Assembly (NCBI GenBank): GCA_018829965.1
Contig: JAHJTG010000005.1
Coordinates: forward strand, 148,774 to 212,773
Direction of reading: 5' to 3'
Origin: Patescibacteria group bacterium
GTDB lineage: Bacteria > Patescibacteriota > Minisyncoccia > Minisyncoccales > Staskawiczbacteraceae
DNA: 64,000 bases
Shown: positions 9,258-42,407 of the stretch, in pieces
Numbering within the stretch: position 1 is the first letter of the stretch
How the letters are laid out: every line of letters begins with the position of its first letter
Notes under the pieces: generated by a model
What the model was told of the DNA's origin: nothing
Databases searched by the model: none
Seen by the model: the letters and a program-made list of their open reading frames with translations, nothing else
Program-made: the position numbers and the translations under genes

Positions 9258-9318
9258 GGGTTTAGGATTTAGAATATAGGACTCTAGGCTCTAGGTTCTA
9301 TCTTCTAATGCCTAACTA
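9258..9318. repeat. Family B heptamer-rich repeat, single arm (TTTAGGATTTAGAAT type)
   Basis: gggtttaggatttagaatataggactctaggctctaggttcta matches the arms of the 26.1, 37.4, 41.9 and 60.6 kb copies. Confidence 0.6.
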
Positions 9319-9333
9319 TCAGTGATGGGCTTG

Positions 9334-9463
9334 CCCCGTTAGAAGTCTACATAATTTAAAATTTTATAATCACAATTCTAAGAATTTATTATAATACTGT
9401 GGCGATGCACGAATTTTTGAATTCGTGCATCGCAAAGTTTTCCACCGCAAACTTCTAACGGGG
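9334..9463. mobile_element. MITE-like element, family C (CCCCGTTAGAAGT termini), flanked by a CTTG duplication
   Basis: CCCCGTTAGAAGT at 9334-9346 and ACTTCTAACGGGG at 9451-9463. CTTG at 9330-9333 and 9464-9467. 130 bp, with an internal perfect hairpin gcgatgcacgaat/attcgtgcatcgc. Confidence 0.7.
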
Positions 9464-9464
9464 C

Positions 9465-9492
9465 TTGACAACGTTCCTTGAAAAAATACAAT
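9465..9492 (+). promoter_or_regulatory. Sigma70-like promoter abutting the family C element end
   Basis: TTGACA (9465-9470), a 16-nt spacer, then TACAAT (9487-9492). It would drive the small acidic ORF. Confidence 0.4.
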
Positions 9493-9574: not shown

Positions 9575-9763
9575 ATGGCTGAGGAATTTTTAACTCGCTT
9601 TATCAACCTAGACGAAGAAGATGAAATTGAAATAGACCCTGAAGAACTGAATGATGATTTAAAAGACGACGATGATTTAAAAGATGATGACGACTTGAAA
9701 GACGACGATGCTTTAGAAAAAGATACAGACGACATAGACCCGATAGAACCAGACGACGAATAA
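9575..9763 (+). CDS. Small, highly acidic repeat protein (62 aa); hypothetical
   Basis: DDDDLKDDDDLKDDD repeats. A promoter-like site lies upstream and a hairpin terminator (ccgc-tcaact-ggcgg plus a T-run at ~9779-9803) downstream. No homology recognised. Confidence 0.3.
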   Translation: MAEEFLTRFINLDEEDEIEIDPEELNDDLKDDDDLKDDDDLKDDDALEKDTDDIDPIEPDDE

Positions 9764-12192: not shown

Positions 12193-13317
12193 TTATACTG
12201 ATTTTATAGGCATAACCACATAAAGATAACTAATATCTCCTACTGGTTTTAAAATACAAGGGCCGCCTTCTCCACTCAAACTTAACATGATTTCCGCGCT
12301 TTTAATATTTAAAATGCCGTCTGTCAAAAACTTATGATTAAAAGAAACCTCCATCGGCTCTCCATCTATTTTCGCCAATAAGGTTGATGTACTTTCGCCA
12401 ATATCTGGGTTTTTTGCTAAAATCTCCAGGGATTTTTTAGCGGGATTAATAATAAATTTTATTTCGTTAATCTTTCCGCTAAAAAGAGCTGCTGTTTTAA
12501 TATGGTTTAAGAAATCGTCCTTTTTAACTGTAATATTTGTTTTAAATTTAGAGGGGATAATCTCCTGATAATTAGGGTATTCTCCTTCTATTAAACGAGA
12601 AAAAACTTGAATTTGTGGATGTTTGACTCCTTCCATAGGAAGCTCAAATAAGGTTTGATTGGTCGCAAAACAAATTTTTAAAACACCCTCTTTGTCTCCT
12701 AGGGCATTAATTATTTCTTTTGCTGACTTTTGCGGGAGTATGAAAGAATAATCTTTTTTGTCTTTATTTTCTATAGCGATTGTTTTTTCAGCTAACCTGA
12801 AACTATCAGTGGCCACTATTTTTAAAGAGTCTTTAGAAAACAACAAATAAACACCTGAGATTTCCGGCCTCGCCTGTGAAAGAGAAGCGATGTCAACAAT
12901 TTGCCCTAATCCCATACAAAACCTTTTATTATCAACCACCAAAGATTCTTGGTTTTTAATTTCTGGTATTAAAGGAAAATCCTCCGGATTAAATCCTTGT
13001 AGTTGAGTTTTATAATTTTTACACTCTATAGATAAGTTTTGTTTTTTTTCTTCAATCAATATTTTTTCTTCTGGTAACAAAGAAATAAAACTAGAAAGGA
13101 ACCTTGCGGGGACAACCACTTTTCCTTCTTTTGATATTTTAGCTAAAACCCAATATTTTATGGCGGTTTCTAAATCGGTTGCGGTTAATAATAAAAAATT
13201 ATTTTCAGTGCTTATTAAAACGTTGTCTAAAATAGGAAGGGTTATGTTTTTCCCAATAATTTTTTCAACAATACTCAACCCAGTTTTTAGATTATTTTTT
13301 GAAACTTCTATTTTCAT
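12193..13317 (-). CDS. dnaN: DNA polymerase III beta sliding clamp
   Basis: 374 aa with three-domain clamp layout, immediately downstream of dnaA. Confidence 0.9.
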   Translation of the reverse strand: MKIEVSKNNLKTGLSIVEKIIGKNITLPILDNVLISTENNFLLLTATDLETAIKYWVLAKISKEGKVVVPARFLSSFISLLPEEKILIEEKKQNLSIECKNYKTQLQGFNPEDFPLIPEIKNQESLVVDNKRFCMGLGQIVDIASLSQARPEISGVYLLFSKDSLKIVATDSFRLAEKTIAIENKDKKDYSFILPQKSAKEIINALGDKEGVLKICFATNQTLFELPMEGVKHPQIQVFSRLIEGEYPNYQEIIPSKFKTNITVKKDDFLNHIKTAALFSGKINEIKFIINPAKKSLEILAKNPDIGESTSTLLAKIDGEPMEVSFNHKFLTDGILNIKSAEIMLSLSGEGGPCILKPVGDISYLYVVMPIKSV

Positions 13318-13515
13318 ATTTCACAATAGTTTTAATTATTTATATATATAATTATTGTTATTATTAGTTTTGTGTTTGTTTTATTGGTTTTGTGTTTGTT
13401 TGTGTTTGTTTTTTTTGTGGATTAATTGTGGTTTATATTAATGGGTTTATATGTTTTTTTTCGTTGTTTTTATAAAAATATTTTAATAGGTTTTTATCCA
13501 CAGTTTTTATCCACT
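13318..13515. other. Candidate oriC (dnaA-dnaN spacer with DnaA boxes and an AT/GT-rich repeat tract)
   Basis: TTATCCACA at 13494-13502. TTATCCACT at 13507-13515. TGTGGATTA (complement TAATCCACA) at 13417-13425. gttttgtgtttgttt tandem tract at 13360-13415. The rpmH/dnaA/dnaN synteny supports the call. Confidence 0.6.
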
Positions 13516-14862
13516 ATATATTTTTTGTTTTATTAACCCGATTTCCTCAGTTAGTTTGTTGTTTTCTTCAAACTCTTGATTAATTTTTCGATAAGCATAA
13601 ATCACAGTGGTGTGGTCTTTCCCCCCAAATTTTCTAGCGATAGCCGGGAAAGAATATTTTAATTCTTTTCTTAATAAAAACATTGCAATTTGTCGGGGCC
13701 TTACAATTTCTTTTTTTCTTGTTGTCTCAAAAAGATCTTTTTCTTCTAGGTTATAAAACTTAGCCACGGCCTCAATAATCTTTTTATAATTAGCAACATC
13801 GAAAGGAGAAAAAATATAGCTTTTTAAAAGTTTTTTAACTGTGTCTAAACTAGGAATACTATTATTTATTTTAGAATAAATTAAAAGGCGGTTCAAAGCT
13901 CCTTCTAATTCTCGTATATTTTTTTTGACATTAGCGGCAACATAATCCAGAACGTCTTCGGGGAGTCCTAGGTGCTTTTCTTGCAATTTGTTTTTTAAAA
14001 TAACCAAACGTGTCTCATAGTCGGGGAAGCTGATATCGGCAATCATCCCGCCTTCAAACCGCGACCTTAATCTTTCTTCTAGTTCTGGAATTGCGTTTGG
14101 CGGTCTGTCGGAAGATAAAATAATTTGCTTATTTTTTTCGTATAAAGTATTAAATGCGTGGAAAAATTCCTCTTGAGTTTTATTTTTACCAGCTAAAAAC
14201 TGAACATCATCAACAATTAAAACATCAATTTGGGACAAATTATTTTTAAACACATCTATATTGTGGTTTCTTATAGCATTCACAATGCCAGTGATAAATT
14301 TTTCGGAAGATATGTATTTAATTTTTTTCTTCTTTGAACCCCCAGTAATCTTATTCCCAACCGCTTGCAAGAGGTGGGTTTTACCCAACCCGACTCCTCC
14401 ATAAATAAATAAAGGATTATATGTCAACCCTGGGTTTTCTGATACTGCCCAAGCAGCGGCGTGGGCCAATTCATTGAAAGAACCGATAACAAAATTATCA
14501 AAAGTATAACGAGGATTGAGGTTTGTTTCTTTGTCTATTTTAAATTCTTCAAAATCAAGCTGCTCTATATTAGATTTTTCTCCATTAGAAATTTTTACAG
14601 GGAAGACTTTTGCGCCTTGAGGTTTAATAATATACTCAACTTCTTTAATTTTATCATCTAAATCATGTAGAATTTTTAGAATTAACTTATTATATTTATT
14701 GCTCAACCATTCTTTTGAAAAAGCGTTAGGAACCGAAACAACCACCACTTCGTCTTCTTTTGAGGCAATTTCAGTATTCTGAAGCCATGTAGCAAAATTA
14801 GCCTTAGAAATACCAAGCTGAATTTGGGTTAAAACTGTTTGCCAAAGCTCTTTATTGTCCAT
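13507..14862 (-). CDS. dnaA: Chromosomal replication initiator DnaA
   Basis: GGVGLGKTHLL, LIVDDVQFL and the C-terminal RKFGGKDHTTVIYA DNA-binding motif. Confidence 0.95.
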   Translation of the reverse strand: MDNKELWQTVLTQIQLGISKANFATWLQNTEIASKEDEVVVVSVPNAFSKEWLSNKYNKLILKILHDLDDKIKEVEYIIKPQGAKVFPVKISNGEKSNIEQLDFEEFKIDKETNLNPRYTFDNFVIGSFNELAHAAAWAVSENPGLTYNPLFIYGGVGLGKTHLLQAVGNKITGGSKKKKIKYISSEKFITGIVNAIRNHNIDVFKNNLSQIDVLIVDDVQFLAGKNKTQEEFFHAFNTLYEKNKQIILSSDRPPNAIPELEERLRSRFEGGMIADISFPDYETRLVILKNKLQEKHLGLPEDVLDYVAANVKKNIRELEGALNRLLIYSKINNSIPSLDTVKKLLKSYIFSPFDVANYKKIIEAVAKFYNLEEKDLFETTRKKEIVRPRQIAMFLLRKELKYSFPAIARKFGGKDHTTVIYAYRKINQEFEENNKLTEEIGLIKQKIYSG

Positions 14863-15141
14863 AGGTGGAAAATATTATTAGAATCTTTTGGTAAAAATAA
14901 TTAATAAATTAACGCTATAATTTAGAAGAGAAAAAATAATGCCTTTTTCATTGTAGCAGACAATAAGAGTAGTCGGAAATGAGCGTAAACTTTGCTTAAC
15001 TGTTATTAACTTGGGGATAAGTTGTGCAGGGATATAGGCTAATTTTAATCGTGATTTCTGTCCAAGCTGCGGGACATAATTGACGACGAAGTAATTTCAT
15101 AATATACTAAAATATAATAAAAACAATTAATTTTTATCAAT

Positions 15142-15276
15142 ATGAGTTTTACCTACCAACCCAAAAAGAAAAAAAGGAGAAAGACCCACGGTTTTTTGAA
15201 ACGAAAAAAAACCAAACAAGGCAAAGCAGTTCTTCAAAGGAGAAGAAGGAAAGGAAGAAAAAAATTGACGGTATAA
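15142..15276 (+). CDS. rpmH: 50S ribosomal protein L34 (not in the ORF track; 44 aa)
   Basis: ATG at 15142. [47 protein letters not shown] at 15274-15276. Upstream of rnpA as usual. Confidence 0.9.
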
Positions 15277-15291
15277 TATACATAAAAATTC

Positions 15292-15633
15292 ATGCTGCCA
15301 CGGCAAAACAGGCTTACTAAAAAAAGAGACTTCGATAGTGTTTTTAAAAACGGTAAAGGAGCTAAAGAAGGCTTTTTATTTTTAAAAACAGTCCCGAACA
15401 AACTTTCCGATAGCCGCTTCGCCTTTATTACGAGCCAAAAGATGTCCAAAAAAGCGACGGTTAGAAACAAAATTAGGCGTCAACTGCGGGAAATAATAAA
15501 AACCAATATAGGTATTATTAAAAAAGGAACGGATTGCGCGATAGTTGTTTTGCCTGGGTTTAATGACGTGTCTTTCTGGGATATAGAAAAAGATATGATG
15601 GGTTTATTAAAAAAAGCAAAGTTAGTTAAATAA
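15292..15633 (+). CDS. rnpA: Ribonuclease P protein component
   Basis: 113 aa, basic. LTKKRDFDSVFKNG...KKATVRNKIRRQLRE. rpmH-rnpA-yidC synteny. Confidence 0.85.
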   Translation: MLPRQNRLTKKRDFDSVFKNGKGAKEGFLFLKTVPNKLSDSRFAFITSQKMSKKATVRNKIRRQLREIIKTNIGIIKKGTDCAIVVLPGFNDVSFWDIEKDMMGLLKKAKLVK

Positions 15634-15645
15634 TTTTAATCAAAA

Positions 15646-16377
15646 ATGATTGAAATACTCGTAAAATCATTCTATTTAGTTTTATATCAACCGTTATTCA
15701 ATTTTTTAGTCTTGCTATATGAATATTTGCCTGGCCATGATTTTGGCTTGGCAATTATTGTTTTAACTTTAATAATTAGATTATTATTATATCCGTCCTC
15801 CGCAAAATCCATAAAGACTCAAAAAGCCCTGAACGAGATACAACCTAAACTCCAGGAAATCCAAAAAAAATATAAAGACGATAAAGAAAAGCAAGTGAAA
15901 GAGACGCTAGACCTTTATAAAAAAGAGAAGATAAATCCATTCGGAGGAATTTTATCCGCCCTTATACAGCTACCAATTTTGATTGCTTTGTACCAAGTGC
16001 TTAGAAAGGGTTTTGACCCAGCAGAATTGTCTGTTTTATATAATTTTGTCTCAAGCCCGGGCCATATCAACGCAATGTTTATAGGATTTATTGATTTATC
16101 AAAACCGAATTTAGTTTTAGCAATACTGGCTGGGGTTGCTCAATTCATCCAAACAAAAATCACACTTCCTATCACAAAAAAAACTAATGATAAAACACAA
16201 GACTTCGCGAAGATTATGCAAAAACAAATGGTATATTTCTTCCCTTTTTTAACGGTTATAATACTTATGGGTCTTCCTTCGGCGCTTGGACTTTATTGGA
16301 TGGTTGGAAGTGTATTTTTAATTATTGAACAATATCTTCTTTTTAACAAAACAAAAACTAATAAAACACCTATTTAA
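15646..16377 (+). CDS. yidC: Membrane protein insertase, short YidC/Oxa1 family
   Basis: Multi-TM protein with PFGGILSALIQLPILIALY and LPSALGLYW motifs. Synteny supports the call. Confidence 0.85.
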   Translation: MIEILVKSFYLVLYQPLFNFLVLLYEYLPGHDFGLAIIVLTLIIRLLLYPSSAKSIKTQKALNEIQPKLQEIQKKYKDDKEKQVKETLDLYKKEKINPFGGILSALIQLPILIALYQVLRKGFDPAELSVLYNFVSSPGHINAMFIGFIDLSKPNLVLAILAGVAQFIQTKITLPITKKTNDKTQDFAKIMQKQMVYFFPFLTVIILMGLPSALGLYWMVGSVFLIIEQYLLFNKTKTNKTPI

Positions 16378-16383
16378 AAAAAC

Positions 16384-16971
16384 ATGTTAAACTCTGATGA
16401 CATTAAAAAAGCGAAAGAAGCAACAGAAGAATTCTTTCAAAAGATGACGATCGGCGCCATTATTGACATTAACGCGGGCAATTTAAATACAGAGGATATT
16501 TTATCTGGACCTGCCCGCATCGACTACGCCGAAGGCGTTGCAGGCGGGGATAGTGAAGTAAAAGAAAATAAACCTGCCCGCAATGCTTCGCATAGCGATG
16601 CAGGCGGGAGCAATGATTCTATAGAGTTGAATATAAAGGTTGATGATCCGCAGATTTTAATTGGAGAAAGAGGGCAAACCTTAAACGAAATACAAAGGCT
16701 TTTGAGGGTGGTTCTTAATAAGAAATTAGATAAAGCGTTTTATTTAAACTTAGATATTAATGAATATAGGAAAAAGAAAACAGAGTACTTGAAAACTATG
16801 GCCAGGGAATTAGCTGATGAAGTAGTTTTAACAAAAGAAGAAAAGGTTCTTTCCCCGATGTCTTCTTATGAGAGAAGAATTATCCATGCGGAGCTAGCAG
16901 GCAGGCCAGATATAATAACAGAGAGTGAAGGAGAAGGGTTGGAAAGAAGAGTGGTGATAAAATTAAAATAG
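16384..16971 (+). CDS. jag: Jag/SpoIIIJ-associated RNA-binding protein (KH + R3H)
   Basis: C-terminal SYERRIIHAELAGRPDIITESEGEG (R3H), downstream of yidC. The linker carries two in-frame GC-rich hairpin repeats. Confidence 0.75.
   Translation: MLNSDDIKKAKEATEEFFQKMTIGAIIDINAGNLNTEDILSGPARIDYAEGVAGGDSEVKENKPARNASHSDAGGSNDSIELNIKVDDPQILIGERGQTLNEIQRLLRVVLNKKLDKAFYLNLDINEYRKKKTEYLKTMARELADEVVLTKEEKVLSPMSSYERRIIHAELAGRPDIITESEGEGLERRVVIKLK
16510..16608. repeat. Two tandem family E GC-rich hairpins in-frame inside jag
   Basis: cctgcccgcatcgactacgccgaaggcgttgcaggcggg (16510-16548) and cctgcccgcaatgcttcgcatagcgatgcaggcggg (16573-16608). The same termini occur at 35.5 kb. Confidence 0.75.
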
Positions 16972-17013: not shown

Positions 17014-18174
17014 TTAATTATTTACGACTGGGAAAATTACAACAATTAAAGGTAGCCATTTTTGGTTTTGGATAACTTCCCATTTTATTTGTTTCGGCCC
17101 TTCCTTATTTATATCATTTGGTGTTGGGAAAAGTTGGCAGAAACCGAAAGTTTCCTTTTCCGGATTTTTAGGTGGCTCAGCGGTAATAAATAAAACAACA
17201 TAACTACCGTCTATTTCTATCGAGCCTATGTTCTGCCCATCTAAAGTAGGTGGTTTCCTCTCTATGCATTTGTTTTTAATATCCCATTTTATGCAAACTT
17301 GTTCCTCTATCGGAACATCTTTGAATTGTAGTTCATCTAAGCTGGCAACGTAAACATTTTTTAGTTCACTATTTTTAATAGTGTACCAGCCACCATTTTT
17401 ATCGTGATATGGTTTTCTATAAAATGTTACTCCATTGCCAGTCGGGCTTTTGGTTTCTTGGTATATGGCGGCTGAAGAGGCAGAAGTATCAATATCGCTG
17501 TCGCATCCTACGGGGAATACCCACAAACAATTGCCTTGGAAATTAATTACATCGAATAATATTGCCATATAAACAGTTGATTCTGCCCAAGTTTTCTCCC
17601 ACTTGTCGACTATTTTTACTGATTTTATTTTATTTTTATAGTCCCCAAAGTCATTTATACTCGAAGTCGAATATCCGACTGGGGTAGAAAAGCAGCCAGG
17701 TTTATCATAAAAATAAACACCAGCTGGCTCTCCTTCTTCTGGTAGCTTTGGTGGCTCCTTAAGCTTTTTTTGTATTTCAAAAACGCTAAGGGCCGGATTA
17801 ATAGTCGTGGCTATTAAATATGTAAACAATATAAGAAGAAAACCCGTTAAAGCTCCCCGAAAACGATCTTTGGCAGACACCTTTAAGCTTGGGAATACAT
17901 TAGAAAGCAGATAAAAAACACCAGCGACAATTAAAGCTAAAATTGTTATCAAAAAACCAAACCATATTCCGAAATTATATAAATACAATAGAAAGGTTGG
18001 TAGTTCTGGCATATCAGAAAGAGCTTCTCCTGTCGGGAGTTCTGGGTATTTAATTTCTAACGGTAGATTTGCGGCCGAACAAAAATTAAAACAAAAAAAA
18101 GAGAAAAGGCAGATTATTAAAAACCCCCAAACAAAAATACTGCAATTTATTTTTTTAAATATATTATATTTCAT
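17014..18174 (-). CDS. T4SS-pilin-domain fusion protein 3: signal peptide, TrbC/VirB2-like two-TM pilin module and a ~250-aa extracellular domain
   Basis: Start re-set to MKYNIFKK, where ATG 18174 overlaps the upstream TAA as TAATG. The N-terminal module LEIKYPELP...LYLYNFGIWFGFLITILALIVAGVFYL...TGFLLILFTYLIATTINPAL is paralogous to the two upstream genes and to the 119-aa ORF at 43.3 kb. Confidence 0.6.
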   Translation of the reverse strand: MKYNIFKKINCSIFVWGFLIICLFSFFCFNFCSAANLPLEIKYPELPTGEALSDMPELPTFLLYLYNFGIWFGFLITILALIVAGVFYLLSNVFPSLKVSAKDRFRGALTGFLLILFTYLIATTINPALSVFEIQKKLKEPPKLPEEGEPAGVYFYDKPGCFSTPVGYSTSSINDFGDYKNKIKSVKIVDKWEKTWAESTVYMAILFDVINFQGNCLWVFPVGCDSDIDTSASSAAIYQETKSPTGNGVTFYRKPYHDKNGGWYTIKNSELKNVYVASLDELQFKDVPIEEQVCIKWDIKNKCIERKPPTLDGQNIGSIEIDGSYVVLFITAEPPKNPEKETFGFCQLFPTPNDINKEGPKQIKWEVIQNQKWLPLIVVIFPVVNN

Positions 18175-19496
18175 TAAATAGGTTTGATAGAAATTACCCA
18201 TATTTTCCCTTTAGAAATATCATTATCCCTTAGAAGCCAAGAGGTTCTTAGGGTGGTAGCAGAATTGTTTTGTTGGGAAGAATATTTGTCAAAACCCTGG
18301 CAATAATTACCATCCGTTGAACAGATATAAACTAAGTAATCGCCTTTTATATTTATAGAACCACCGCAGGAGATTTTTGGTATGTCGGCTATTTTATAAC
18401 ATAGTTCTTTTTCTTCGTCGGTTCTATCTATCCCCGTATAGTCAAATTCCGCTTCCGCAGGCCATGAAGCTCCTAACCCAAGACTAAAAGCATAATTTTT
18501 ATATATATCAGGTGGAAAGGAATATTTACCAGCTCGCGCCGCAACCTGCCAGCCGTACGGATGGCTGTAGAAATCTACTCCATCACCAGAAGTTTTGGGT
18601 TCAAGGTTTAATTGAAAAAAAGTAAAAGAAGAAGGGGAAAAGTCTAATTTGCCAGTTATTAATGGTACTTTCCCAAAATAAATTTTTGAACATTTCCCTG
18701 TTTGGTCTATCCCTTCGTGAAAAATGACTCCGTAATATGTTTTTGTTTTCTCGTCGTTTACAATTATAAAAGATTTTGTATTTTTTTTATAATCTTGATC
18801 CATCTCTGGCTGGCTTTTTAAAATTTGTTTAGAGCGATCTTTGCCCCCTACGGTGGTAAGATAAAGGCCGGGTTTTTCTTTTTCCCACATAAAAGATTTG
18901 GCGTCACTGATGGCAGTTGTTCCTCCGCATTTTAATTCAACAATCCATTGCTGTACCCAAGGGATTAGATTTGCGGTAGGAAATTTTCTAACCCATAGGG
19001 TAGGCATTATCCCCTCTAACCCTTCTGGGCATTTATATTTCAGCGTTTTAAAAACTCCTAATTTAGAGGTGTCATCTATTGATGGCGGACAGGGCGTTTC
19101 TTCAGTTCCATCTGTGAGAATAACATCAAAGTTATCTGGGAGCTCCGCAGGGTTTTTATTGGTCAGCAATGCCGGATTAATTGTTTTCATAATCAAATAA
19201 GAGGAAAATAAAAGAATTAAGCCGAAAATAGAGCCTATAATTCTTTTTCTGGCGTTACCAACCGCGTCAGGATTACCAGCCGAAGTCATCCATTGGATAG
19301 CTCCGATTACTAGGGCCAAAACAGCAATAGCTCCGCCTAGTCCGATAAAAAAATTGAATAAAACATCTCTATAATCAATTAAAGTGGGGTTGCCCGGGAG
19401 ACCAGGTATTTCTACTTCTAATTTAGCGGAACAAAAACTTCCTGCTGTTAGGAGAATAAATATGATAAACAAAAAATAGTGATAAATTTTTTTCAT
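18174..19496 (-). CDS. T4SS-pilin-domain fusion protein 2 (440 aa)
   Basis: Signal peptide, then LEVEIPGLPGNPTLIDY...FFIGLGGAIAVLALVIGAIQWMTSAGNPDAVGNARKRIIGSIFGLILLFSSYLIMKTINPALL. The C-terminal domain shares motifs with the 17.0 kb paralog (GDGVDFYSHPYGW / GNGVTFYRKPYH; GSINIKGDYLVYI / GSIEIDGSYVVLFI). Confidence 0.6.
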   Translation of the reverse strand: MKKIYHYFLFIIFILLTAGSFCSAKLEVEIPGLPGNPTLIDYRDVLFNFFIGLGGAIAVLALVIGAIQWMTSAGNPDAVGNARKRIIGSIFGLILLFSSYLIMKTINPALLTNKNPAELPDNFDVILTDGTEETPCPPSIDDTSKLGVFKTLKYKCPEGLEGIMPTLWVRKFPTANLIPWVQQWIVELKCGGTTAISDAKSFMWEKEKPGLYLTTVGGKDRSKQILKSQPEMDQDYKKNTKSFIIVNDEKTKTYYGVIFHEGIDQTGKCSKIYFGKVPLITGKLDFSPSSFTFFQLNLEPKTSGDGVDFYSHPYGWQVAARAGKYSFPPDIYKNYAFSLGLGASWPAEAEFDYTGIDRTDEEKELCYKIADIPKISCGGSINIKGDYLVYICSTDGNYCQGFDKYSSQQNNSATTLRTSWLLRDNDISKGKIWVISIKPI

Positions 19497-19497
19497 A

Positions 19498-19627
19498 CTC
19501 CGTTAGAAGTCCTTTGCGAAAAAATTATAAATAAATTTTTTCTTGGACTCATAAATAAATTATTTAATAAAATTATATTTGCCCCATTAAAATTTCCATC
19601 GTAAAATTTATCAGACTTCTAACGGGG
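19498..19627. mobile_element. MITE-like element, family C, inside the pilin operon; flanked by a CATA duplication
   Basis: CTCCGTTAGAAGT at 19498-19510 and ACTTCTAACGGGG at 19615-19627. CATA at 19494-19497 (includes the ATG of the 440-aa gene) and at 19628-19631. 130 bp. Confidence 0.7.
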
Positions 19628-19693
19628 CATAGTTTTTATATTATTTAAAATTCAAATATTTTTTAATAAAAATTATAGACCCAGAAAATCCAC

Positions 19694-23130: not shown

Positions 23131-24933
23131 TTATTCGTTAGTTTGTTCTTTGGTTTGTTTTATTTTTAATAATTCCTCTGGCGAGGTTGTGATAATTTGG
23201 TTTTCGGTAGAGCTTGCCAAAACAGTTATTGCAGCGTGTTTTTTCCCGGCAAAGAAGATTCCTTCTCCTACCGCAGACTCTAATAATAGGAATTTTTCTT
23301 GTTCGGTCAGATTGAATACTTTTTGGAGTACGTCAATAGTTGCCGGTGATTGTTTAAATAAAATTGACATTGAAGAGTTTGTAATAATCGCTTGGCCATA
23401 ATCTGATTTCATAAAATCAGCAACGTCTTGAGTAATAGTTGTGACGCCCAGCCAGTATTTTCTCGCTCTTTTTACTAGTCCGAATAAAAATGAAGCTCCT
23501 TCTAATGTTTGCATCATCCACCAAGCCTCATCAATCACTAGAATCCTTTTTTTCATTTTTGACCTGATGATATTCCAGATGTATCTCATAATAATATACA
23601 AAGCCATTGGCTTTAATGATTCCTCCATATCCCTTATACCGAAAACAACCATATTTTTATCCATTGAAATATTAGATTTTTGGTTAAAGAAATCAGCATA
23701 AGTGCCTTTGATGAATTTTTTCATCCTCTTAACTAAGGATTCGGTTCCAGACATGCTTTCTAACACTTCTGCAAAATCAGACATTAAAGGAATATTTTCC
23801 TGCCAAGTTTTTGGGTCTGATTCCGGTGTGATGTCTCGGATTGCATAAGTTTCAGTTAAAGCCTCGTCTATAATGCTGTCTTCTTCCGGGTTTAACCCGC
23901 CAAGCATTATTCTTAATAATCCAACTAAGTTGATAATATTAGACCTTAAAATATCTTCTTTGTTTTCTTTTTCATTAGGGATTGGCAAATCAAAAGGATT
24001 AAGTTGATGCGGCGAAGTTAAAGAAATTTTAAAAAATGCCCCGCCTGCCGCATCTGCTAACGCCTGGTACTCGTTTTCAGGGTCAATGACAATGATATCT
24101 ACCCCTTGCATTAAGTAACGTAAAATTTCTAATTTTATCGCGAAACTTTTTCCTGATCCGCTTTTAGCGAAGCAAACCGAGTTCGCATTTTCCAAACTAA
24201 ATCTATCAAATAAAACAAGAGAATTATTATGGCGGTTAATGCCGTAAAGAATTCCTTCATTTGAGCTCAAGTCAAAAGAAGTGAAAGGGAAAGCAGTAGA
24301 TAAGGGAGCTGTATCCATCGGGATATGAACGCCGATTAAATCCATTCCATAAGGGCTACAAGATATAAATCCCTCCCTTTGTTTATAAAGGGCTGGTTTG
24401 ATATATATTAAGCGCGATTCAAAAATAGACCTTAAGGTAAGCTCAGTGTCTTTTAATTCTTTTAGCGTGTTTTCATAGATAGTGATATATAGCCCGAAGC
24501 GGAACATTTTTTCTTGCGCAGTTTGAAGACTATCTCTTAACGCTTCAATGTTTTGGTAAGCGGCTTCTAACGCGGGGTCGCGGACTAATCCCTTTTCCTC
24601 TCTGTCTAAAAGGTCGGCAGAAACCTCGGTAACTTTTTTTCTTAACTTTTTCAGGATTAGCTCGGTGCTGATAGGGTGGATATGGAAAGAAATATCCATC
24701 GGCGTATTTAGGTTGATTACAGGAGAGAGCCAACCTGTATTTAAATATCTTGGGTAAGAAAAAATAAAAAAAGAACGAGAAAGGCGTTCTCCTAATTTAA
24801 GATGGTCTTGTTCAACTCCGATATATGGAGGAGCAATAATATCTCTTACATCAAAAGCTTCTTCTTGGAAGATTTTCTCTTCTGTTTCGTCTTTTTGTTT
24901 TTTGAAAAGTTTATTTAAGAAATCAAATTTCAT
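23131..24933 (-). CDS. VirB4/TraE/PrgJ-like type IV secretion ATPase
   Basis: 600 aa. Walker A FAKSGSGKSFAIK and Walker B RILVIDEAWWMM. The N-terminal region is like Gram-positive VirB4 homologs. Confidence 0.8.
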   Translation of the reverse strand: MKFDFLNKLFKKQKDETEEKIFQEEAFDVRDIIAPPYIGVEQDHLKLGERLSRSFFIFSYPRYLNTGWLSPVINLNTPMDISFHIHPISTELILKKLRKKVTEVSADLLDREEKGLVRDPALEAAYQNIEALRDSLQTAQEKMFRFGLYITIYENTLKELKDTELTLRSIFESRLIYIKPALYKQREGFISCSPYGMDLIGVHIPMDTAPLSTAFPFTSFDLSSNEGILYGINRHNNSLVLFDRFSLENANSVCFAKSGSGKSFAIKLEILRYLMQGVDIIVIDPENEYQALADAAGGAFFKISLTSPHQLNPFDLPIPNEKENKEDILRSNIINLVGLLRIMLGGLNPEEDSIIDEALTETYAIRDITPESDPKTWQENIPLMSDFAEVLESMSGTESLVKRMKKFIKGTYADFFNQKSNISMDKNMVVFGIRDMEESLKPMALYIIMRYIWNIIRSKMKKRILVIDEAWWMMQTLEGASFLFGLVKRARKYWLGVTTITQDVADFMKSDYGQAIITNSSMSILFKQSPATIDVLQKVFNLTEQEKFLLLESAVGEGIFFAGKKHAAITVLASSTENQIITTSPEELLKIKQTKEQTNE

Positions 24934-24938
24934 AAATT

Positions 24939-25427
24939 CCTACGAATTACGAATTAAATCGAATTACGAATAACTTCGAATTTATCATGATTTTAAATTA
25001 ATGATTCTTTTAAATTGCAGTCCTTTTTTCGTAAAATTTGCTAAAATTCCTAATTCTAATCCAGTTGCTTTTAAATAAGCATAAACTTGGTCGGTGTTAT
25101 TTTTTAGAAATTTATCCATTTTTTTAATTTCTAATATAATTTTATTTTCAATTAAAAAATCTAAGAAATACCTGCCTATCGGATTTTTATCAAAGCTAAT
25201 TTCTATTGGGACTTGTTCTTTGAATAACAAATTGGTTTCTTTTAATCTCGTGCTTACGGCTTTTTGATAATATTTTTCTTGATAACCATAGCCTAATTTA
25301 TTAGAGACATCAAACAAAATTCCTATTATTTGGTAGCTTAACTCTGGGTAGAGCAAATCTTTCCGTCTTAACTTGCTTTGTTTATTTAAATTATATTCGT
25401 AATTCGGTGACATTCGTAATTCGTAAG
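24939..25427 (-). mobile_element. Family A hairpin element in its gene-bearing form: CGAATTA-heptamer arms enclosing a GxxExxY ORF
   Basis: Left arm cctacgaattacgaattaaatcgaattacgaata (24939-). Right arm attcgtaattcggtgacattcgtaattcgtaag (-25427). These match the arms of the ~115-bp copies at 37.8, 39.0 and 42.2 kb. The ORF start codon lies inside the right arm. Confidence 0.7.
24985..25413 (-). CDS. GxxExxY family protein (PD-(D/E)XK-fold, IVS-protein type)
   Basis: 142 aa. The family motif is present as G-YQ-E-KY-Y in LGYGYQEKYYQKA, followed by DFLIENKIILEIKK (D...E-x-K). Confidence 0.7.
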   Translation of the reverse strand: MSPNYEYNLNKQSKLRRKDLLYPELSYQIIGILFDVSNKLGYGYQEKYYQKAVSTRLKETNLLFKEQVPIEISFDKNPIGRYFLDFLIENKIILEIKKMDKFLKNNTDQVYAYLKATGLELGILANFTKKGLQFKRIINLKS

Positions 25428-25431
25428 ATCG

Positions 25432-26103
25432 TTATTTTATTAATTCCGGAAGAATTTCAGGATAGTAGCCGATTTCTGCTTGTTCCGGGTGGTGGATTGA
25501 CCAAAATAATTCAATCAATTCAGCCGTAGTCAAAGGAATGGCTTCTAACCCGCATCTCCTTAATCCCATTGCCAAGAATTCCATTCTTTGCCAAAGTTGA
25601 GTTTTACATCTTTGAAAGTCGCTATCATCTATTTCTTGCGAATTTTGTTCTTCTTTTTTGCCGAATAATTTTTTTAAATCGAATCCTTTTTTAACAGCAG
25701 CTTTTATGCCCAGCGCTTCTACTAAGCTATATGGCACGACGACATAGAAATTCTTGGTCATAATAGTTTCTCCTTTGACCAGCTCTTTTATAAAGTCGTG
25801 GTAACCAGCAGTTTGCGCTTTTAAAAGTTCATTTGTTTGGTTGGCTTCTAAGTCTTTTATGCCGTCTAAATATGGTGTGATATTTATCCTTCTTGATTGG
25901 ATTATGATTTGCGCGGAAAAATCCAAGCTATTTAAAAAGCTTTGGAAGGCATAAATAATTGCTGTTTGTTCGTCTTCAGATTTCAAAGCAAAGTTTAAAG
26001 AGGAAACCATTAAAACACCCCTTATTCCTTGGTTTTTTAAAATCAGTAAACCTTCTTTAATATCTTTAACTTCTAAAAAATCTTGAGTTGATGTTTCAGG
26101 CAT
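25432..26103 (-). CDS. Conserved T4SS-cluster protein (223 aa), function unknown
   Basis: Sits between the PrgI-like and VirB4-like genes. QDFLEVKDIKEGLLILKNQGIRGVLMVSSLNFALKSEDEQ resembles proteins that accompany VirB4 in Gram-positive-type systems (recollection only). Confidence 0.45.
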   Translation of the reverse strand: MPETSTQDFLEVKDIKEGLLILKNQGIRGVLMVSSLNFALKSEDEQTAIIYAFQSFLNSLDFSAQIIIQSRRINITPYLDGIKDLEANQTNELLKAQTAGYHDFIKELVKGETIMTKNFYVVVPYSLVEALGIKAAVKKGFDLKKLFGKKEEQNSQEIDDSDFQRCKTQLWQRMEFLAMGLRRCGLEAIPLTTAELIELFWSIHHPEQAEIGYYPEILPELIK

Positions 26104-26235
26104 AAATTTATGAAATTCTAAACTCTAATATCTAAATTCTAAACAAATTTCAATTTTCTAAATCCCAAATCACAAACACGTTTGAAATTTGAGCAATTGG
26201 GATTTGTGATTTATTTAGGATCTAGGATTTTAATT
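26104..26235. repeat. Family B hairpin element (CTAAAYY-heptamer arms), empty form
   Basis: Left arm aaattctaaactctaatatctaaattctaaa...aaatcccaaatcacaaa. Right arm gggatttgtgatttatttaggatctaggatttt. It fills the intercistronic gap. Confidence 0.65.
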
Positions 26236-26643
26236 CTACTTAGTATTTAGCTCTATTTTCGTTTTTAGCTTTTTAAGGCCACTTTTCTGACTTACTCCTA
26301 ATTTTACTTCTTCAACTTTTTTAAGAGTTGCTTTTTGTATTGTTTTGAAGGGATAAAGGGATTCTTTCTTTTTCCATGTATATGCTTTAGCGCCAGATAG
26401 AAATCCGATAGAATTGAAAACCATTGTTAATAAAGGAACGCCATTAATTTTAAAAAATCCTAAAGAAAGAGCGCCCCCGCCGACAATAATAGCGGCGACA
26501 ACAAAAATAGGGAAAGGGAGGATAGAGTAGAGTACAAAAATAACAGCACCGGCTACAGTAAGGTATATGAATTGTCGCATTGTTAAGAAAGAAGTCATTC
26601 TTGCTTCCTCTTCAATAAATTGTGGGACAGGATATTGTTCCAT
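26236..26643 (-). CDS. PrgI-family (VirB3-like) small T4SS membrane protein
   Basis: 135 aa. MEQYPVPQFIEEEARMTSFLTMRQFIYL followed by two TM helices. First gene of the VirB4 block. Confidence 0.6.
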   Translation of the reverse strand: MEQYPVPQFIEEEARMTSFLTMRQFIYLTVAGAVIFVLYSILPFPIFVVAAIIVGGGALSLGFFKINGVPLLTMVFNSIGFLSGAKAYTWKKKESLYPFKTIQKATLKKVEEVKLGVSQKSGLKKLKTKIELNTK

Positions 26644-27130
26644 AACAACTTAAATTCTAAATTCTAATTTCTAAATCCTAAATAAATCTAAAACTCAAAG
26701 GTTAAAATTCAAAACATTACATTATTTTGATTTCTCAACCATTGAGCCAAAAATTTTAGTCAGTTCGGTTGCTTCCTGTATTAATTTGTTCCCTTCTGTT
26801 TTTAGGGTTTCACTGTTAATTTCGACTAATCTTAACCAATAACAACTTTCTTTGGCTTCCTTGCGGCAAATTTTAATTCGCATTAGAAAATCTTTTTTGC
26901 TCAAAGTTTCATTCGCCTCAATATAATTTGCCCCGATAGACCCCGATGACCTAATAAGCTGTTTGCCGTCTTCTATGTTGGCAATAGTTCGGCTTAATTT
27001 TCTGACAAATTCTCTTACGTGTCTGGAAAATTCAAGCGTCCTGTCTTCAAGGTCATATCGTTTTGAATTTTGGATTTCGGACATTTAAATTTATTTAGAG
27101 TTTAGGATTTAGTGCTTAGAGTTTTAAATA
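26644..27130 (-). mobile_element. Family B hairpin element in its gene-bearing form, enclosing a four-helix-bundle (23S IVS protein family) ORF
   Basis: Arms taaattctaaattctaatttctaaatcctaaataaatctaaaactc (26650-) and atttatttagagtttaggatttagtgcttagag (27088-27125). The latter is near-identical to the right arm at 60.67-60.71 kb. Confidence 0.65.
26722..27084 (-). CDS. Four-helix-bundle protein (23S rRNA intervening-sequence protein family)
   Basis: 120 aa. LIRSSGSIGANYIEANETLSKKDFLMRIKICRKEAKESCYWLRL is the typical signature of that family. Confidence 0.75.
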   Translation of the reverse strand: MSEIQNSKRYDLEDRTLEFSRHVREFVRKLSRTIANIEDGKQLIRSSGSIGANYIEANETLSKKDFLMRIKICRKEAKESCYWLRLVEINSETLKTEGNKLIQEATELTKIFGSMVEKSK

Positions 27131-35494: not shown

Positions 35495-35752
35495 TTTCAC
35501 CCTACGAATTACCTGCCCGCATCGGCTACGCCAGCCCGCATGACTCGCGTCAGCGTGTCTGGCAGACCGGAAGCGTTGCAGGCGGGCGGAATTCGAATTA
35601 CGAATAAAATTCCTGCCCCTACGAATTACGAATTTAACCAAATTACGAATTTAAAAAACGGAGTGATTTATCTCCGCTTTTTTATTAGTACTCGGTTGCT
35701 ATCCCCTAAACCCTATACCCTAAACCCTGCACCCTATCCCTTAGACCCTAGC
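35495..35752. repeat. Repeat pile-up: a family E hairpin nested in family A arms, a terminator, then CCCTAAA-type heptamers
   Basis: - cctacgaatta|cctgcccgcatcggctacgcc...gaagcgttgcaggcggg|cggaattcgaattacgaata.
- Terminator cggag-tgatttat-ctccg plus a T-run (~35656-35690).
- ccctaaaccctataccctaaaccctgcaccctatcccttagaccctag at 35704-35752. Confidence 0.7.
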
Positions 35753-37328
35753 TCTCTTTTAACCTATACATTAAAGCCTCGGCGACATGTCCATATTGGA
35801 TGCTCTCTGCTTTATCTAAATCAGCAATAGTTCTGGCGACTTTTAACACTCTGTGATATCCTCGGGCAGATAGTTTTCCGGAATCAACGTATTGTTTTAG
35901 AAGATTTTGTCCTCGCGAGTCATGTTGACAGTACTTTTTTATATCAGGTAATCCCATTTCAGAGTTCGTAAAAATCTTATTAGAAGAAAATCTTGATTTT
36001 TGTATCTCACGGGCTGTCTCTATTTTTTCTCTTATTTTCTCGCTTGTATTTTCTGTTTCTTCTGAAACTAATTTTTCATATTTTACAGCCGGCACCTCAA
36101 TAAACAAATCCATTCTATCCATTAATGGCCCTGATAATTTTCTTCTATACATCGCGACTTGGGAAGTTGTGCAATTGCAGATTTTATCCGGGTCATTTAA
36201 ATATCCGCAAGGGCAGGGGTTGGAAGCTCCAATTAACATAAAACGGCTGGGAAAATTAAAAGTATTTTTTGCCCGAGAAACAGTTATTGTCCCTTCTTCA
36301 ATTGGTTGTCGGAGTGATTCTAAAACATCTCTATGGAACTCTGGAAATTCGTCCAGAAACAAAACTCCGCGATGCGCCAATGTTATTTCCCCTGGTCTTG
36401 GAGGATTTCCGCCGCCGAGCAAAGCCACTTCAGACGAAATATGATGCGGGGAACGGAATGGTCTGAAATTAATAAGCGGCTTGTCATCCGGCAGTAATCC
36501 AGCTATGCTGTAAATTTTTGTGACCTCTAACGATTCTTGAAAATTTAATCTCGGCAAGATAGAAGGGATTGCTTTGGCTAATAAAGTTTTTCCTCCGCCC
36601 GGCGGTCCGAAAAGAAAAAGATTATGACCTCCTGCGGCGGTGATTTCCAAAGCTCTTTTCGCATATTCTTGGCCTTTAATCCAAGCCAAGTTCACGGGAT
36701 AATCAGGGTTTTGGAATAATTCTTCTATTTTAAAATCCTCTGGGGCAAAAGATTTCTTTCCTTCTAAATACTTTATTACATCTGTTAATGATTCGCATCC
36801 TATTACTTTTAGGCTATTATCCTGCGCCCCATCTTTTTTAGATAAGGCGGTTGCTAAAACTGCCTCTTTTTCGTTTGCTCTTGGCAAGATTATTTCTTTA
36901 ATTCCTTGTCTTTTAGCCAATAAAGCAAAAGATAAAGCGCCTTTAATCGGCCGTAATCTTCCATCTAAGGATAGCTCGCCAAAAAATATTTTATCTTGCG
37001 ATTCAAATTTAATCTGGTTAGACGCAGAGAGAAATGAAAGAGCTATTGGCAAATCAAAAAGCGCCCCTTCTTTTTTTAAATCAGCAGGAGCTAATCCTAT
37101 CAGAACTTTATATGGTCTTTGATAGGGAGAGAGAAGCTTCGAACTTTTAATGGCGCTGCCAATCCTTTCTTTTGATTCTTCAACCGCCTTGTCTGGAAGC
37201 CCTACTATATTAAAAGAGCGGAGACCGTGTGAAACATCAGCCTCCACTTCTACAATTTTTGCTTCAAGTCCTACTATTGACGCCGAAAAAACCTTTGATG
37301 GCATAGAATAATAAATCCTAAACTCCAA
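35748..37328 (-). CDS. comM: Mg-chelatase-like AAA+ protein YifB/ComM
   Basis: 526 aa. Lon-like N-terminal domain, GPPGGGKTLLAK, GVLFLDEFPEF, and the Zn motif CPCGY...CNC. Confidence 0.85.
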   Translation of the reverse strand: MEFRIYYSMPSKVFSASIVGLEAKIVEVEADVSHGLRSFNIVGLPDKAVEESKERIGSAIKSSKLLSPYQRPYKVLIGLAPADLKKEGALFDLPIALSFLSASNQIKFESQDKIFFGELSLDGRLRPIKGALSFALLAKRQGIKEIILPRANEKEAVLATALSKKDGAQDNSLKVIGCESLTDVIKYLEGKKSFAPEDFKIEELFQNPDYPVNLAWIKGQEYAKRALEITAAGGHNLFLFGPPGGGKTLLAKAIPSILPRLNFQESLEVTKIYSIAGLLPDDKPLINFRPFRSPHHISSEVALLGGGNPPRPGEITLAHRGVLFLDEFPEFHRDVLESLRQPIEEGTITVSRAKNTFNFPSRFMLIGASNPCPCGYLNDPDKICNCTTSQVAMYRRKLSGPLMDRMDLFIEVPAVKYEKLVSEETENTSEKIREKIETAREIQKSRFSSNKIFTNSEMGLPDIKKYCQHDSRGQNLLKQYVDSGKLSARGYHRVLKVARTIADLDKAESIQYGHVAEALMYRLKES

Positions 37329-37480
37329 ACTCTAAATTCTAATCACTAAATTCTAAATAAATCCAAAAACTAAAATCAAAAATTCAAAACTTTATAATTT
37401 AAATATTTGGATTTTGAAATTGTTTAGGCCTATTTAGCTCGTCGAGCCAACGGTTCGAATAGAGATTTAGGATTTAGGAT
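37329..37480. repeat. Family B hairpin element, empty form
   Basis: aatcctaaactccaaactctaaattctaatcactaaattctaaataaatccaaaaactaaaatcaaaaattcaaaac ... agagatttaggatttaggatttt. It spans the comM start and the dksA-like stop. Confidence 0.65.
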
Positions 37481-37839
37481 TTTATAATGTTGCATTTTGT
37501 ACAAAATTTTGCTTCTGGGCAGGCTTTCAATCTCGCAATGTCTATAGATTTTCCGCATTTTTCGCATTTGCCATATTTACCCTTCTTTATTTTTTCCAAA
37601 GCCAGATTAACATCGCGTAATCGTGTTTCCAGATTGTATTCCACGGATAAAAGTTTTTCATATTCTTGTACTTCGTCTGCTTCTGATTCTAAATTTCCTC
37701 CATCAAATTTAGGATAACGAGTGCCCCAGTCCCCCCTTGATTTAGAGTCTTCATTGGCGAAATTCTTTAACTCTTTTTCAAGAGAGCTTTTCTCTTTTTC
37801 TAATTTTTGTTTTAATTCTTCAGTTGATTTTTTAATCAT
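37474..37839 (-). CDS. DksA/TraR-family C4 zinc-finger protein
   Basis: Coiled-coil N-terminus and CEKCGKSIDIARLKACPEAKFCTKC. Confidence 0.75.
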   Translation of the reverse strand: MIKKSTEELKQKLEKEKSSLEKELKNFANEDSKSRGDWGTRYPKFDGGNLESEADEVQEYEKLLSVEYNLETRLRDVNLALEKIKKGKYGKCEKCGKSIDIARLKACPEAKFCTKCNIIKS

Positions 37840-37847
37840 AATAAATC

Positions 37848-37960
37848 CTACGAATTACGAATTATTTCGAATTACGAATATGTGGAAAGCGTTATGCGAA
37901 TTTTTATTTTCCGCTCCGAATTTTTTATTCGTAATTCGGTAGCATTCGTAATTCGTAAGG
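37848..37960 (-). mobile_element. Family A hairpin element, ~115-bp empty (deletion-derivative) form
   Basis: cctacgaattacgaattatttcgaattacgaatatg...ttattcgtaattcggtagcattcgtaattcgtaagg. The minus strand retains ATG CTA CCG AAT TAC GAA TAA (MLPNYE*), the stub of the GxxExxY ORF start (MSPNYEY...). Confidence 0.75.
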
Positions 37961-38980: not shown

Positions 38981-38984
38981 AAAT

Positions 38985-39099
38985 CTTACTAATTACGAAT
39001 TTTTTTCGAATTACGAATATGCAGGAAGTGTTATACGAGCTTGCCTTTTCCGCTACGAATTTTTTATTCGTAATTCGGTAGTATTCGTAATTCGTAGGG
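38985..39099 (-). mobile_element. Family A hairpin element, empty form
   Basis: cttactaattacgaatttttttcgaattacgaatatg...ttattcgtaattcggtagtattcgtaattcgtaggg. The stub start codon has decayed to ATA. Confidence 0.75.
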
Positions 39100-41848: not shown

Positions 41849-41869
41849 AATGCTTTTACTTCGTAAAAG

Positions 41870-41968
41870 AAACTCTAAATTCTAATATCTAAACTCTAAA
41901 TGTGTTTTGGATTTTGTGATTTAGAATTTGTGATTTGTTTAGAATTTAGAATTTGGGATTTAGGATTT
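41870..41968. repeat. Family B hairpin element
   Basis: aaactctaaattctaatatctaaactctaaatg...tgatttagaatttgtgatttgtttagaatttagaatttgggatttaggattt. Confidence 0.65.
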
Positions 41969-41969
41969 A

Positions 41970-42233
41970 TTACTTTACTCCTAATTTTTTACAAATTTCA
42001 CTGTATCTTTTTGCAGACTCTTTTTTAAGATAAGCTAAAAGCTTTTTTCTTTTAACCACCATTTTTATTAAACCCCTCTTTGAATGAAAATCTTTAGGAT
42101 GTTTTTTGAGATGTAAAACTAACCTGTTAATTTCTTCGCTTAACAAGCCAATCTGGACCTCTGGAGAACCAGTGTCAGTTTCGTGAATATTGTGCTTCTT
42201 AATAATCTTTGTTTTTTCTTCCGTCTTTAGCAT
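41970..42233 (-). CDS. rpsO: 30S ribosomal protein S15
   Basis: 87 aa. [39 protein letters not shown]. Confidence 0.95.
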
Positions 42234-42238
42234 ATTTC

Positions 42239-42352: not shown

Positions 42353-42407
42353 TTGTCTTTTATTGATTTTAAATATATATTGTAAAACGATTTATGTCAA
42401 ACGAATG

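Follow-up and report, generated by a model that had tools for sequence, protein, structure and literature searches.

Short inverted-repeat elements on the start codons and −35 boxes of Patescibacteria genes

The Correia elements (NEMIS), which are confined to Neisseria, have 26-bp ends and a TA target duplication; these ends influence promoters and, in RNA, pair into a hairpin that serves RNase III as a substrate. They are co-transcribed with adjoining genes. Here we describe three elements of a comparable kind in a 64,000-nucleotide stretch of DNA (the window) from a Patescibacteria group bacterium (GenBank assembly GCA_018829965.1, contig JAHJTG010000005.1, positions 148,774 to 212,773 of the forward strand), together with their relatives in other genomes and in metagenomes. 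These are very probably non-autonomous, cut-and-paste miniature inverted-repeat transposable elements (MITEs) of a very large family in ultra-small Patescibacteria/Parcubacteria, with the ends CCCCGTTAGA(AGT) and a target duplication of 4 bp, rarely 5 bp. Most copies sit on a start codon or on a −35 box, and neither is destroyed. MITEs are themselves a known kind of element; what is unusual here is the target pattern and the orientation rule. No description of the family was found in the searchable literature, and it is apparently undescribed.

Correia/NEMIS elements offer the best functional analogy: both groups are non-coding, about 100–155 bp long, bounded by inverted ends, flanked by a target duplication, and present in many copies close to genes. 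The elements described here differ, however, in having ends of 13–14 bp, a duplication of 4–5 bp, and Patescibacteria as hosts. Correia elements build promoter parts from their own ends, whereas here the −35 box is derived from the target, and the location of two thirds of the copies on start codons with a fixed orientation is not reported for Correia elements. Insertion within a few bases of a gene landmark, in one orientation and with the gene kept active, recalls Ty3, eukaryotic start-site and promoter integrators, and Tn7 at attTn7, but those systems are autonomous and have a known tethering or selector protein, and the offset from the landmark varies here by 1–3 bp. The RPEs of Rickettsia and ERIC/IRU are likewise short palindromic mobile repeats, tolerated inside or beside essential genes, that form hairpins in mRNA; RPEs, however, insert in frame in coding regions and are translated, whereas the present elements are not read through, and ERIC lack a clear duplication of this type. 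The IS200/IS605 palindromic elements (PATE) and REP/RAYT lack both inverted ends and a duplication and have either a fixed flanking tetranucleotide or an associated gene for an HUH (single-strand DNA) transposase; both were excluded by the inverted ends, the variable duplications and the lack of a recurrent adjoining protein.

Three elements and the family to which they belong

The window was scanned for the 13-mer CCCCGTTAGAAGT with up to two mismatches, using 100 dinucleotide-preserving shuffles as the control. Eight matches are present against a shuffle mean of 1.0, and none of the 100 shuffles gave eight. An earlier reading made from the letters alone (the sequence-only reading) had described three elements with inverted ends and 4-bp duplications, and direct reading bears it out, adding one mismatch in the left end of copy 2 that it had not mentioned. 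Copy 1 reads CTTG, CCCCGTTAGAAGT...ACTTCTAACGGGG, CTTG; copy 2 reads CATA, CTCCGTTAGAAGT...ACTTCTAACGGGG, CATA; and copy 3 reads TTGA, CCCCGTTAGAAGT...ACTTCTAACGGGG, TTGA. The inverted ends pair at 13 of 13 positions in copies 1 and 3 and at 12 of 13 in copy 2, and because the bases outside both flanking repeats differ, the duplication is exactly 4 bp in all three. The features are:

9330–9333, no strand assigned: left target duplication of copy 1, CTTG, identical to 9464–9467.
9334–9463, no strand assigned: copy 1, a 130-bp MITE with inverted ends at 9334–9346 and 9451–9463 (13 of 13 complementary).
9464–9492, plus strand: right duplication of copy 1 (CTTG, 9464–9467) and promoter, with TTGACA at 9465–9470, 16 nt, and TACAAT.
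19494–19497, minus strand: gene-side duplication of copy 2, CATA, which is TATG on the minus strand and holds the ATG at 19496–19494.
19498–19627, minus strand: copy 2, a 130-bp MITE with ends at 19498–19510 (CTCC.., one mismatch) and 19615–19627.
19628–19631, minus strand: upstream duplication of copy 2, the old start codon, reading ATG CCC CGT TAG with a stop after 3 codons.
57049–57052, no strand assigned: left duplication of copy 3, TTGA, by direct reading.
57053–57204, no strand assigned: copy 3, a 152-bp MITE whose inverted ends extend to about 18–21 bp and are 95% complementary.
57205–57210, plus strand: right duplication of copy 3, TTGA; followed by CA it forms TTGACA, the −35 box before nusA, which stems from the target.

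Copy 1 separates ruvC from a small acidic open reading frame (ORF) that is followed by the PBP1A gene, copy 2 is flanked by two pilin-like genes of the minus strand, and copy 3 has a UPF0102 gene on one side and nusA on the other. Only chance ORFs of 20–66 amino acids overlap them, and all three have very stable predicted hairpins closed by their ends. Their interiors are mutually unrelated, at about background identity. That of copy 1 (predicted fold −51.7 kcal/mol, z = −9.2) includes a perfect 14-bp hairpin at 9402–9433 and is unique, with no relative among about 270 elements; that of copy 3 is G+C-rich, also unique, and folds as one long hairpin (−69.9 kcal/mol, z = −7.9). Copy 2 has on its gene side an A/T-rich hairpin (about 19517–19543) of the kind that the main subfamilies conserve; its interior also contains a CCCCATTA box, at 19582–19589.

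One genome per species was scanned for the exact end pair 100–130 bp apart, and the pair occurs in at least 118 loci from at least 67 assemblies. Among the matches listed, nearly all of the hosts are Patescibacteria—Nealson-, Staskawicz-, Kaiser-, Uhr-, Wildermuth-, Jorgensen-, Wolfe- and Niyogibacteria, plus unclassified Parcubacteria—and a single assembly holds up to eight loci. Viral contigs gave no end-pair matches. An independent metagenome scan, in which a match to the 10-bp core at each end sufficed, yielded 120 further loci. The 129 full elements extracted from the matches listed constitute the genome set, to which the counts of duplications, ORFs and orientations refer. Element length is mostly 126–135 bp, with a main range of 126–156 bp and shorter forms of 62–116 bp. 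The flanking duplication is exactly 4 bp in 102 of the 129 elements and 5 bp in six; among these 108, 63 fit TNNA and 31 are TATG. The census of termini proposed with the sequence-only reading thus finds the target duplication in additional copies as well (108/129). Unpaired ends are few (14 among the matches listed, most of them within short or nested elements), so the ends are not explained as stand-alone transcription-factor sites.

The inverted 13-mers might nonetheless be operators or recombination sites, whether for a transcription factor, Xer/dif-like, or integron attC-like. The elements are located at promoters and gene starts, as such sites could be, and GTTAGAA and TTCTAAC resemble the integron core-site consensus, GTTRRRY / RYYYAAC. 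However, the copies carry variable 4-bp direct duplications of local sequence, their ends are nearly always paired about 100–125 bp apart around unrelated sequence, orthologous genes occur both filled and empty, and neither an integrase nor a recombinase was found near the elements, either among the Pfam-annotated ORFs of the window or among the neighbours at the 118 loci. An explanation of this kind is therefore most improbable. The integron attC in particular was rejected, the order GTTAGAA...TTCTAAC being its reverse and the copies being single and dispersed, each with its own duplication, with no integrase in the window.

Several comparisons bear on movement. Interiors are at least 70% identical in 45% of pairs within an assembly versus 6% between assemblies, and identical copies stand before different genes on different contigs of one assembly (L060 and L078). 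The start of nusG is filled at locus L072 and empty at L001; that of rpsL is filled at L069 and empty at L004, L087 and L118; and that of pnp is filled at L080, whereas the window has the empty site. Filled and empty orthologous starts were also found for rpsR, rnhA and a DUF167 gene, the empty ones with an undisturbed ATG. The same start has been hit in several species in the cases of clpB (L044, L082, L083), rnhA (L005, L099, L105) and DUF167 (L013, L100). The elements on such shared starts are sometimes of different subfamilies, and are closer to other copies in their own genome than to each other, so that shared gene starts look like repeated hits on hot spots and not like one ancient insertion. 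For the empty alleles of the window copies, contigs encoding identical RuvC and YraN proteins were found to carry the same insertions, and no empty allele was found among them. Inverted ends, a duplication, amplification within genomes, and filled and empty orthologues together identify the elements as MITEs by the working definition, only the autonomous partner not having been found, and the reading of a MITE family is strongly supported.

The right-end counterpart of CCCCGTTAGA in the family is TCTAACGGGG. Positions 11–13 are mostly the same in both arms in the relaxed metagenome scan (AGT/AGT in 50, AAT/AAT in 30 and AAG/AAG in 8), and the left and right ends covary at position 14. Ends of the AAT and AAG types enclose distinct, conserved, G+C-rich interiors and favour TAAA within GTAAA, whereas the canonical AGT ends favour TGAA, TATG and TTGA (Fisher p = 3e-4 for the association of end variant with target). 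A sister MITE family, whose ends are CCCCGTTAGAAAT (or ..AAAG) and whose G+C-rich interior is conserved, duplicates TAAA within GTAAA(T) and is exemplified in metagenomes by L135 1751–1877, L182 859–986, L240 3004–3130 and L168 2050–2176; a tie of this sister family to tRNA ends was examined and rejected. The core end CCCCGTTAGA is thus shown to define a superfamily with several target preferences.

Start codons and −35 boxes as targets

The dominant feature of the family is its placement, which the sequence-only reading did not include: it gave the flanking repeat of copy 2 correctly as CATA, but this is TATG on the gene strand, and its ATG starts ORF 18174–19496, a type IV secretion system (T4SS)-pilin-like protein. 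In 84 of the 129 elements an ORF of at least 60 amino acids begins exactly at the element boundary. The duplication is TATG in 33 cases, with the ATG kept, and TGAA or TGGA in 49 cases, where it is cut from ATGAA or ATGGA and the last G of the element joins the TG to make a GTG start. Several further cases are missed where the gene is short (e.g. L36) or runs off the locus. The targeted genes are diverse, genuine and intact, and include those for L11 (rplK), S18, RecA, TopA, ClpB, AtpG, RtcB and MetK.

For a controlled comparison each element was removed in silico and the duplication was scored for overlap with the first ATG of an ORF of at least 60 amino acids. Such overlap is present at 63 of 102 empty sites, compared with 266 of 8342 occurrences of the same 4-mers in the same loci (odds ratio 49, p = 2e-64). 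In a looser test, which asks only for an ORF at the boundary and takes its controls from non-coding sequence, the values are 69% for real sites and 18% for controls. The metagenome set replicates the pattern, with 27 of 50 canonical-end copies on start codons.

A second class of 11 elements (about 9%) has (C)TTGAC(A) directly after the end, often with a consensus −10 box 16–18 bp further on. The duplication in this class, CTTG or TTGA, belongs to the −35 hexamer, so that an intact promoter is re-formed on the downstream side. In the window, copy 2 represents the start-codon class and copies 1 and 3 the −35 class, and nine other loci of the genome scan share the pattern of copies 1 and 3. The sequence-only reading had proposed that copies 1 and 3 create outward-facing −35 boxes; GGGG(C)TTGACA is indeed present at their right ends, but the box comes from the target and not from the element. 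Since TTGACA consists in both copies of duplicated target bases and flank, each element landed in an existing −35 box. A promoter directed outward from within the right end was also sought, and no convincing −10 box was found there at a usable distance. The promoter at the right side of copy 1, TTGACA-16-TACAAT, agrees with the consensus at 11 of 12 positions and serves the small acidic ORF (9575–9763) and the PBP1A gene; the −10 box downstream of copy 3 is weaker (TAAGCT at 17 nt).

The TTGACA of copy 3 is followed within about 60–80 nt (window 57205–57290) by a terminator-like hairpin at 57264–57281 and a T-run; box and hairpin together could make a short transcript or an attenuator before nusA.

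The remaining copies, about 20%, are at other sites. At L167 3182–3336 an element lies within the 3′ end of the gene for the GTPase Era, and its inverted end gives a new stop (..CCC CGT TAG).

Purifying selection alone could in principle produce this distribution, if any T-rich tetramer were hit and insertions survived only where a start codon or −35 box was restored. The duplication does fall at varying positions around ATG or TTGACA (TATG or TGAA; CTTG or TTGA), which would not be expected of strict recognition, and the short intergenic spacers, such as the secE-nusG-rplK junctions, the copies at other sites and the stop codon supplied to era all fit such a filter. Non-coding sites with the same 4-mers, however, fall far below real sites in the looser test; an insertion between promoter and start should be worse than one at other intergenic positions; and the identical, presumably recent copies at L060 and L078 are already on start codons. 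End variants also go with different targets, an association that speaks for the enzyme having a part in the choice of site. We therefore think it rather unlikely that selection is the whole explanation.

Oriented interiors and the genes behind them

The statement of the sequence-only reading that only the ends are shared holds within the window, but comparison of genomes reveals large subfamilies whose interiors are conserved and covary, and copy 2 itself has a hairpin typical of them. About half of the elements belong to a subfamily, type A, with a constant layout: left end, A/T-rich hairpin H1, (A)TAACGGGG box, TATAAY, two nested hairpins, and right end. The internal box repeats the last bases of the right end. 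Compensatory changes are clearest in H1, in which 92% of cells are paired and both-side changes occur in 10 of 11 pairs, values that none of 500 shuffles and none of the slid controls attained; support is weaker for the other two hairpins (77% and 66% paired).

Strong type A copies at start codons all have the same orientation to the gene, 49 of 49 in the genome set and 21 of 21 in the metagenome set (together 70/70, p = 2e-21). In 21 weaker or other-subfamily copies, among them copy 2, H1 is instead on the gene side, and orientation is thus fixed within a subfamily but not across the family. Either the transpososome is asymmetric and includes a target selector, or only one orientation permits expression.

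A reading frame opened at the old upstream start always meets a stop within the element, 3 codons on for TATG (ATG CCC CGT TAG) and 7–45 codons on for TGAA, and there is no in-frame read-through in any copy. It follows that the gene must initiate at the rebuilt codon. A translated insert or N-terminal extension was rejected on the same ground, every copy having a stop in the frame of the old start. A Shine-Dalgarno motif precedes only about 10–14% of starts in these genomes, and none is visible in the window. A −10-like TANNNT ends 5–9 nt before the ATG at 40% of targeted starts versus 22% of other starts and 10–13% at control distances (p = 0.002), an excess which suggests that many of the targeted genes may be leaderless. 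The targets include operon-internal secE-nusG and nusG-rplK junctions, however, so a transcription start is no general requirement. In the predicted lowest-energy fold, a 13–15 bp stem has the rebuilt start codon at its base.

At the gathering score, Rfam 15 has no family for the elements, its only matches in the window being tRNAs; permissive Rfam searches of copy 2 and of one type A copy gave chance-level matches far below threshold. Known RNA families, including self-cleaving ribozymes, were accordingly rejected as a match.

As judged from these patterns, the elements might be domesticated mobile 5′-leader or regulatory RNA modules that were spread by transposition and kept for the control of translation or mRNA processing. 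The acting set would be the end stem, hairpins H1–H3 and the internal TAACGGGG box, and a possible route would be cleavage of the end stem by RNase III to leave a short-leader mRNA in organisms without Shine-Dalgarno sites. Consistent with this are the intact essential genes directly behind the elements, initiation at the rebuilt codon as the old reading ends within the element, the uniform orientation of type A, the covarying hairpins and conserved internal box, the scarcity of Shine-Dalgarno motifs, and the occupation of the clpB, rnhA, rpsR and DUF167 starts in several species, sometimes by different subfamilies. Patescibacteria also retain RNase III (PMC12641178). Yet copies 1 and 3 and many others have unrelated interiors, so there is no family-wide RNA; the hairpins could equally act at the DNA level in transposition; no Rfam family matches; and the predicted fold would bury the rebuilt start codon under a 13–15 bp stem. 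We consider such modules a tentative alternative, and a doubtful one, to the reading of the elements as MITEs.

Enzyme class, surroundings and meaning

Target duplications of 4–5 bp are a property of IS1380. The ends of piggyBac start with CCC and its duplication is the 4-bp TTAA, with variants that include TAAA, TCAA and TATG; IS1380 is its prokaryotic relative (PMC10813416). The present elements resemble this group in ends that start with CC(CC), a duplication of 4–5 bp and T-rich tetramer targets, and the piggyBac variants TAAA, TCAA and TATG are among the commonest duplications of the family. The ISEcp1 ends, CCTAGATTCTACGT, share CC..TAGA with CCCCGTTAGAAGT, a short likeness that could be chance. 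Unlike piggyBac, the family rarely uses TTAA (2–3 copies), targeting TGAA, TATG, TTGA and TAAA, and its hosts are Patescibacteria. By analogy of ends, duplication and targets, we infer that an enzyme of IS1380/piggyBac type would be the best fit among known families.

We propose that a transposase supplied in trans would recognise the 10–14 bp ends and cut T-rich tetramers (TNNA or TATG) with a 4-bp stagger. At both kinds of site the duplication repairs what was cut: TATG keeps the ATG, TGAA or TGGA with the terminal G gives GTG, and the −35 hexamer is restored. The site bias may be partly the enzyme's own choice and partly the survival of insertions that leave genes expressible in a compact, Shine-Dalgarno-free genome. 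The strict orientation of type A and its conserved hairpins may mean that the transcribed element is a tolerated or useful 5′ leader.

Several observations weigh against non-autonomous, cut-and-paste MITEs moved in this way. No autonomous element was found among end pairs 400–7000 bp apart with a 4-bp duplication, in the window and about 1.5 Mb of MITE-bearing loci. Likewise no transposase was found among the 50 window ORFs annotated with Pfam, and no recurrent partner gene when 665 ORFs from the 118 loci were clustered, only housekeeping families recurring. The ISEcp1 TnpA, taken from a CTX-M plasmid as the IS1380 query, gave only chance matches (E above 2) in tblastn searches of all loci. 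Metagenomes hold no exact match to the empty site reconstructed for copy 1, and because the three window copies have unrelated interiors, there is no sign of recent amplification in this genome. Both scans demanded exact (core) ends, so that the conservation of the ends partly reflects the selection of copies; symmetric ends alone do not account for the orientation bias; and sequence alone cannot separate enzyme preference from selection.

In the search for autonomous elements, every long end pair with a duplication resolved into two distinct MITEs with ordinary genes between them; L167 3182–4314, the last such pair, encloses era.

The window also has a solo end:

53912–53924, minus strand: solo end ATTTCTAACGGGG, with one mismatch, in the spelling of the sister variant CCCCGTTAGAAAT.

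Its AAT spelling (..GAAAT/ATTTC..) is an end variant common in metagenomes. No partner was found for it at up to three mismatches. About 0.07 one-mismatch matches to the 13-mer would be expected by chance, and the solo end is probably the remnant of an element. A two-mismatch match at 24563–24575, inside a VirB4/TraG-like gene, is probably chance. The sequence-only reading had placed the solo end in a locus like that of transfer-messenger RNA (tmRNA); the end is there, but the identification of its host locus does not stand, since ARAGORN makes no tmRNA call in 53771–54060 and the Rfam matches are below threshold. The locus consists of a tRNA-Ala(CGC), whose acceptor stem is extended by a 10-bp inverted repeat (53771–53790 / 53847–53866), and two pieces like tRNA 3′ halves at about 53880–53905 and 54035–54060. 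These pieces could be attachment-site remnants of integrated elements.

The window is 35% G+C and gene-dense, with type IV secretion, pilin and housekeeping genes and the origin-region genes dnaA, dnaN, rnpA, yidC and jag. At 12193–16971, dnaN and dnaA on the minus strand stand opposite rnpA, yidC and jag on the plus strand, and this is the probable chromosomal replication origin, about 4–5 kb from copies 1 and 2. A single ORF at 54759–56303 (minus strand) joins a LexA DNA-binding domain and an S24 peptidase to an N6/N4 DNA methyltransferase. At 56471–56597 a 53-nt sequence containing a GTCCCGCTAAGCGGGAC hairpin is directly repeated, in two copies that lie just upstream of the UPF0102 gene and overlap its start. 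Two further repeat families are present. One consists of arrays of degenerate 7-nt units (AAATTCT / AAACTCT / AAATCCT), which are intergenic, in both orientations and often beside small genes; the other consists of CGAATTACGAATTA-type units that form imperfect palindromes of about 116 bp and flank genes such as those for a PD-(D/E)XK nuclease (24985–25413) and a dksA-like gene. Their positions are:

26113–26719, 37312–37394, 41869–41968, 44513–44581, 60582–60712 and 9260–9320: arrays of 7-nt units.
24935–24989, 25391–25445, 35614–35651, 37838–37968, 38980–39116 and 42232–42368: CGAATTACGAATTA-type repeats.

A more far-reaching version of the MITE reading is a mobile 5′-leader cassette with target repair, in which a piggyBac/IS1380-like enzyme would set it on the first bases of ORFs or on −35 boxes, the 4-bp duplication with the terminal G would regenerate the start or promoter, and the oriented, structured interior would govern the processing or translation of housekeeping mRNA in bacteria without Shine-Dalgarno sites. 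We hold this to be unlikely as a whole; were it true, and excision seamless as in piggyBac, the insertions would be reversible expression switches across Patescibacteria. For the MITE family itself, the end sequences may serve as a marker for Parcubacteria-type genomes, and gene callers will misplace starts, or report spurious short ORFs, at hundreds of these positions in metagenome-assembled genomes of the Candidate Phyla Radiation. MITEs are common; it is unusual for two thirds of the copies to sit on the start codons of intact essential genes, rebuilt with the element's terminal base, and for a main subfamily to hold one orientation throughout. Such copies offer a way into two poorly understood matters, how a transposon finds, or survives at, gene starts, and how translation is initiated in Patescibacteria, where these genes tolerate a 130-nt hairpin right before the start codon.

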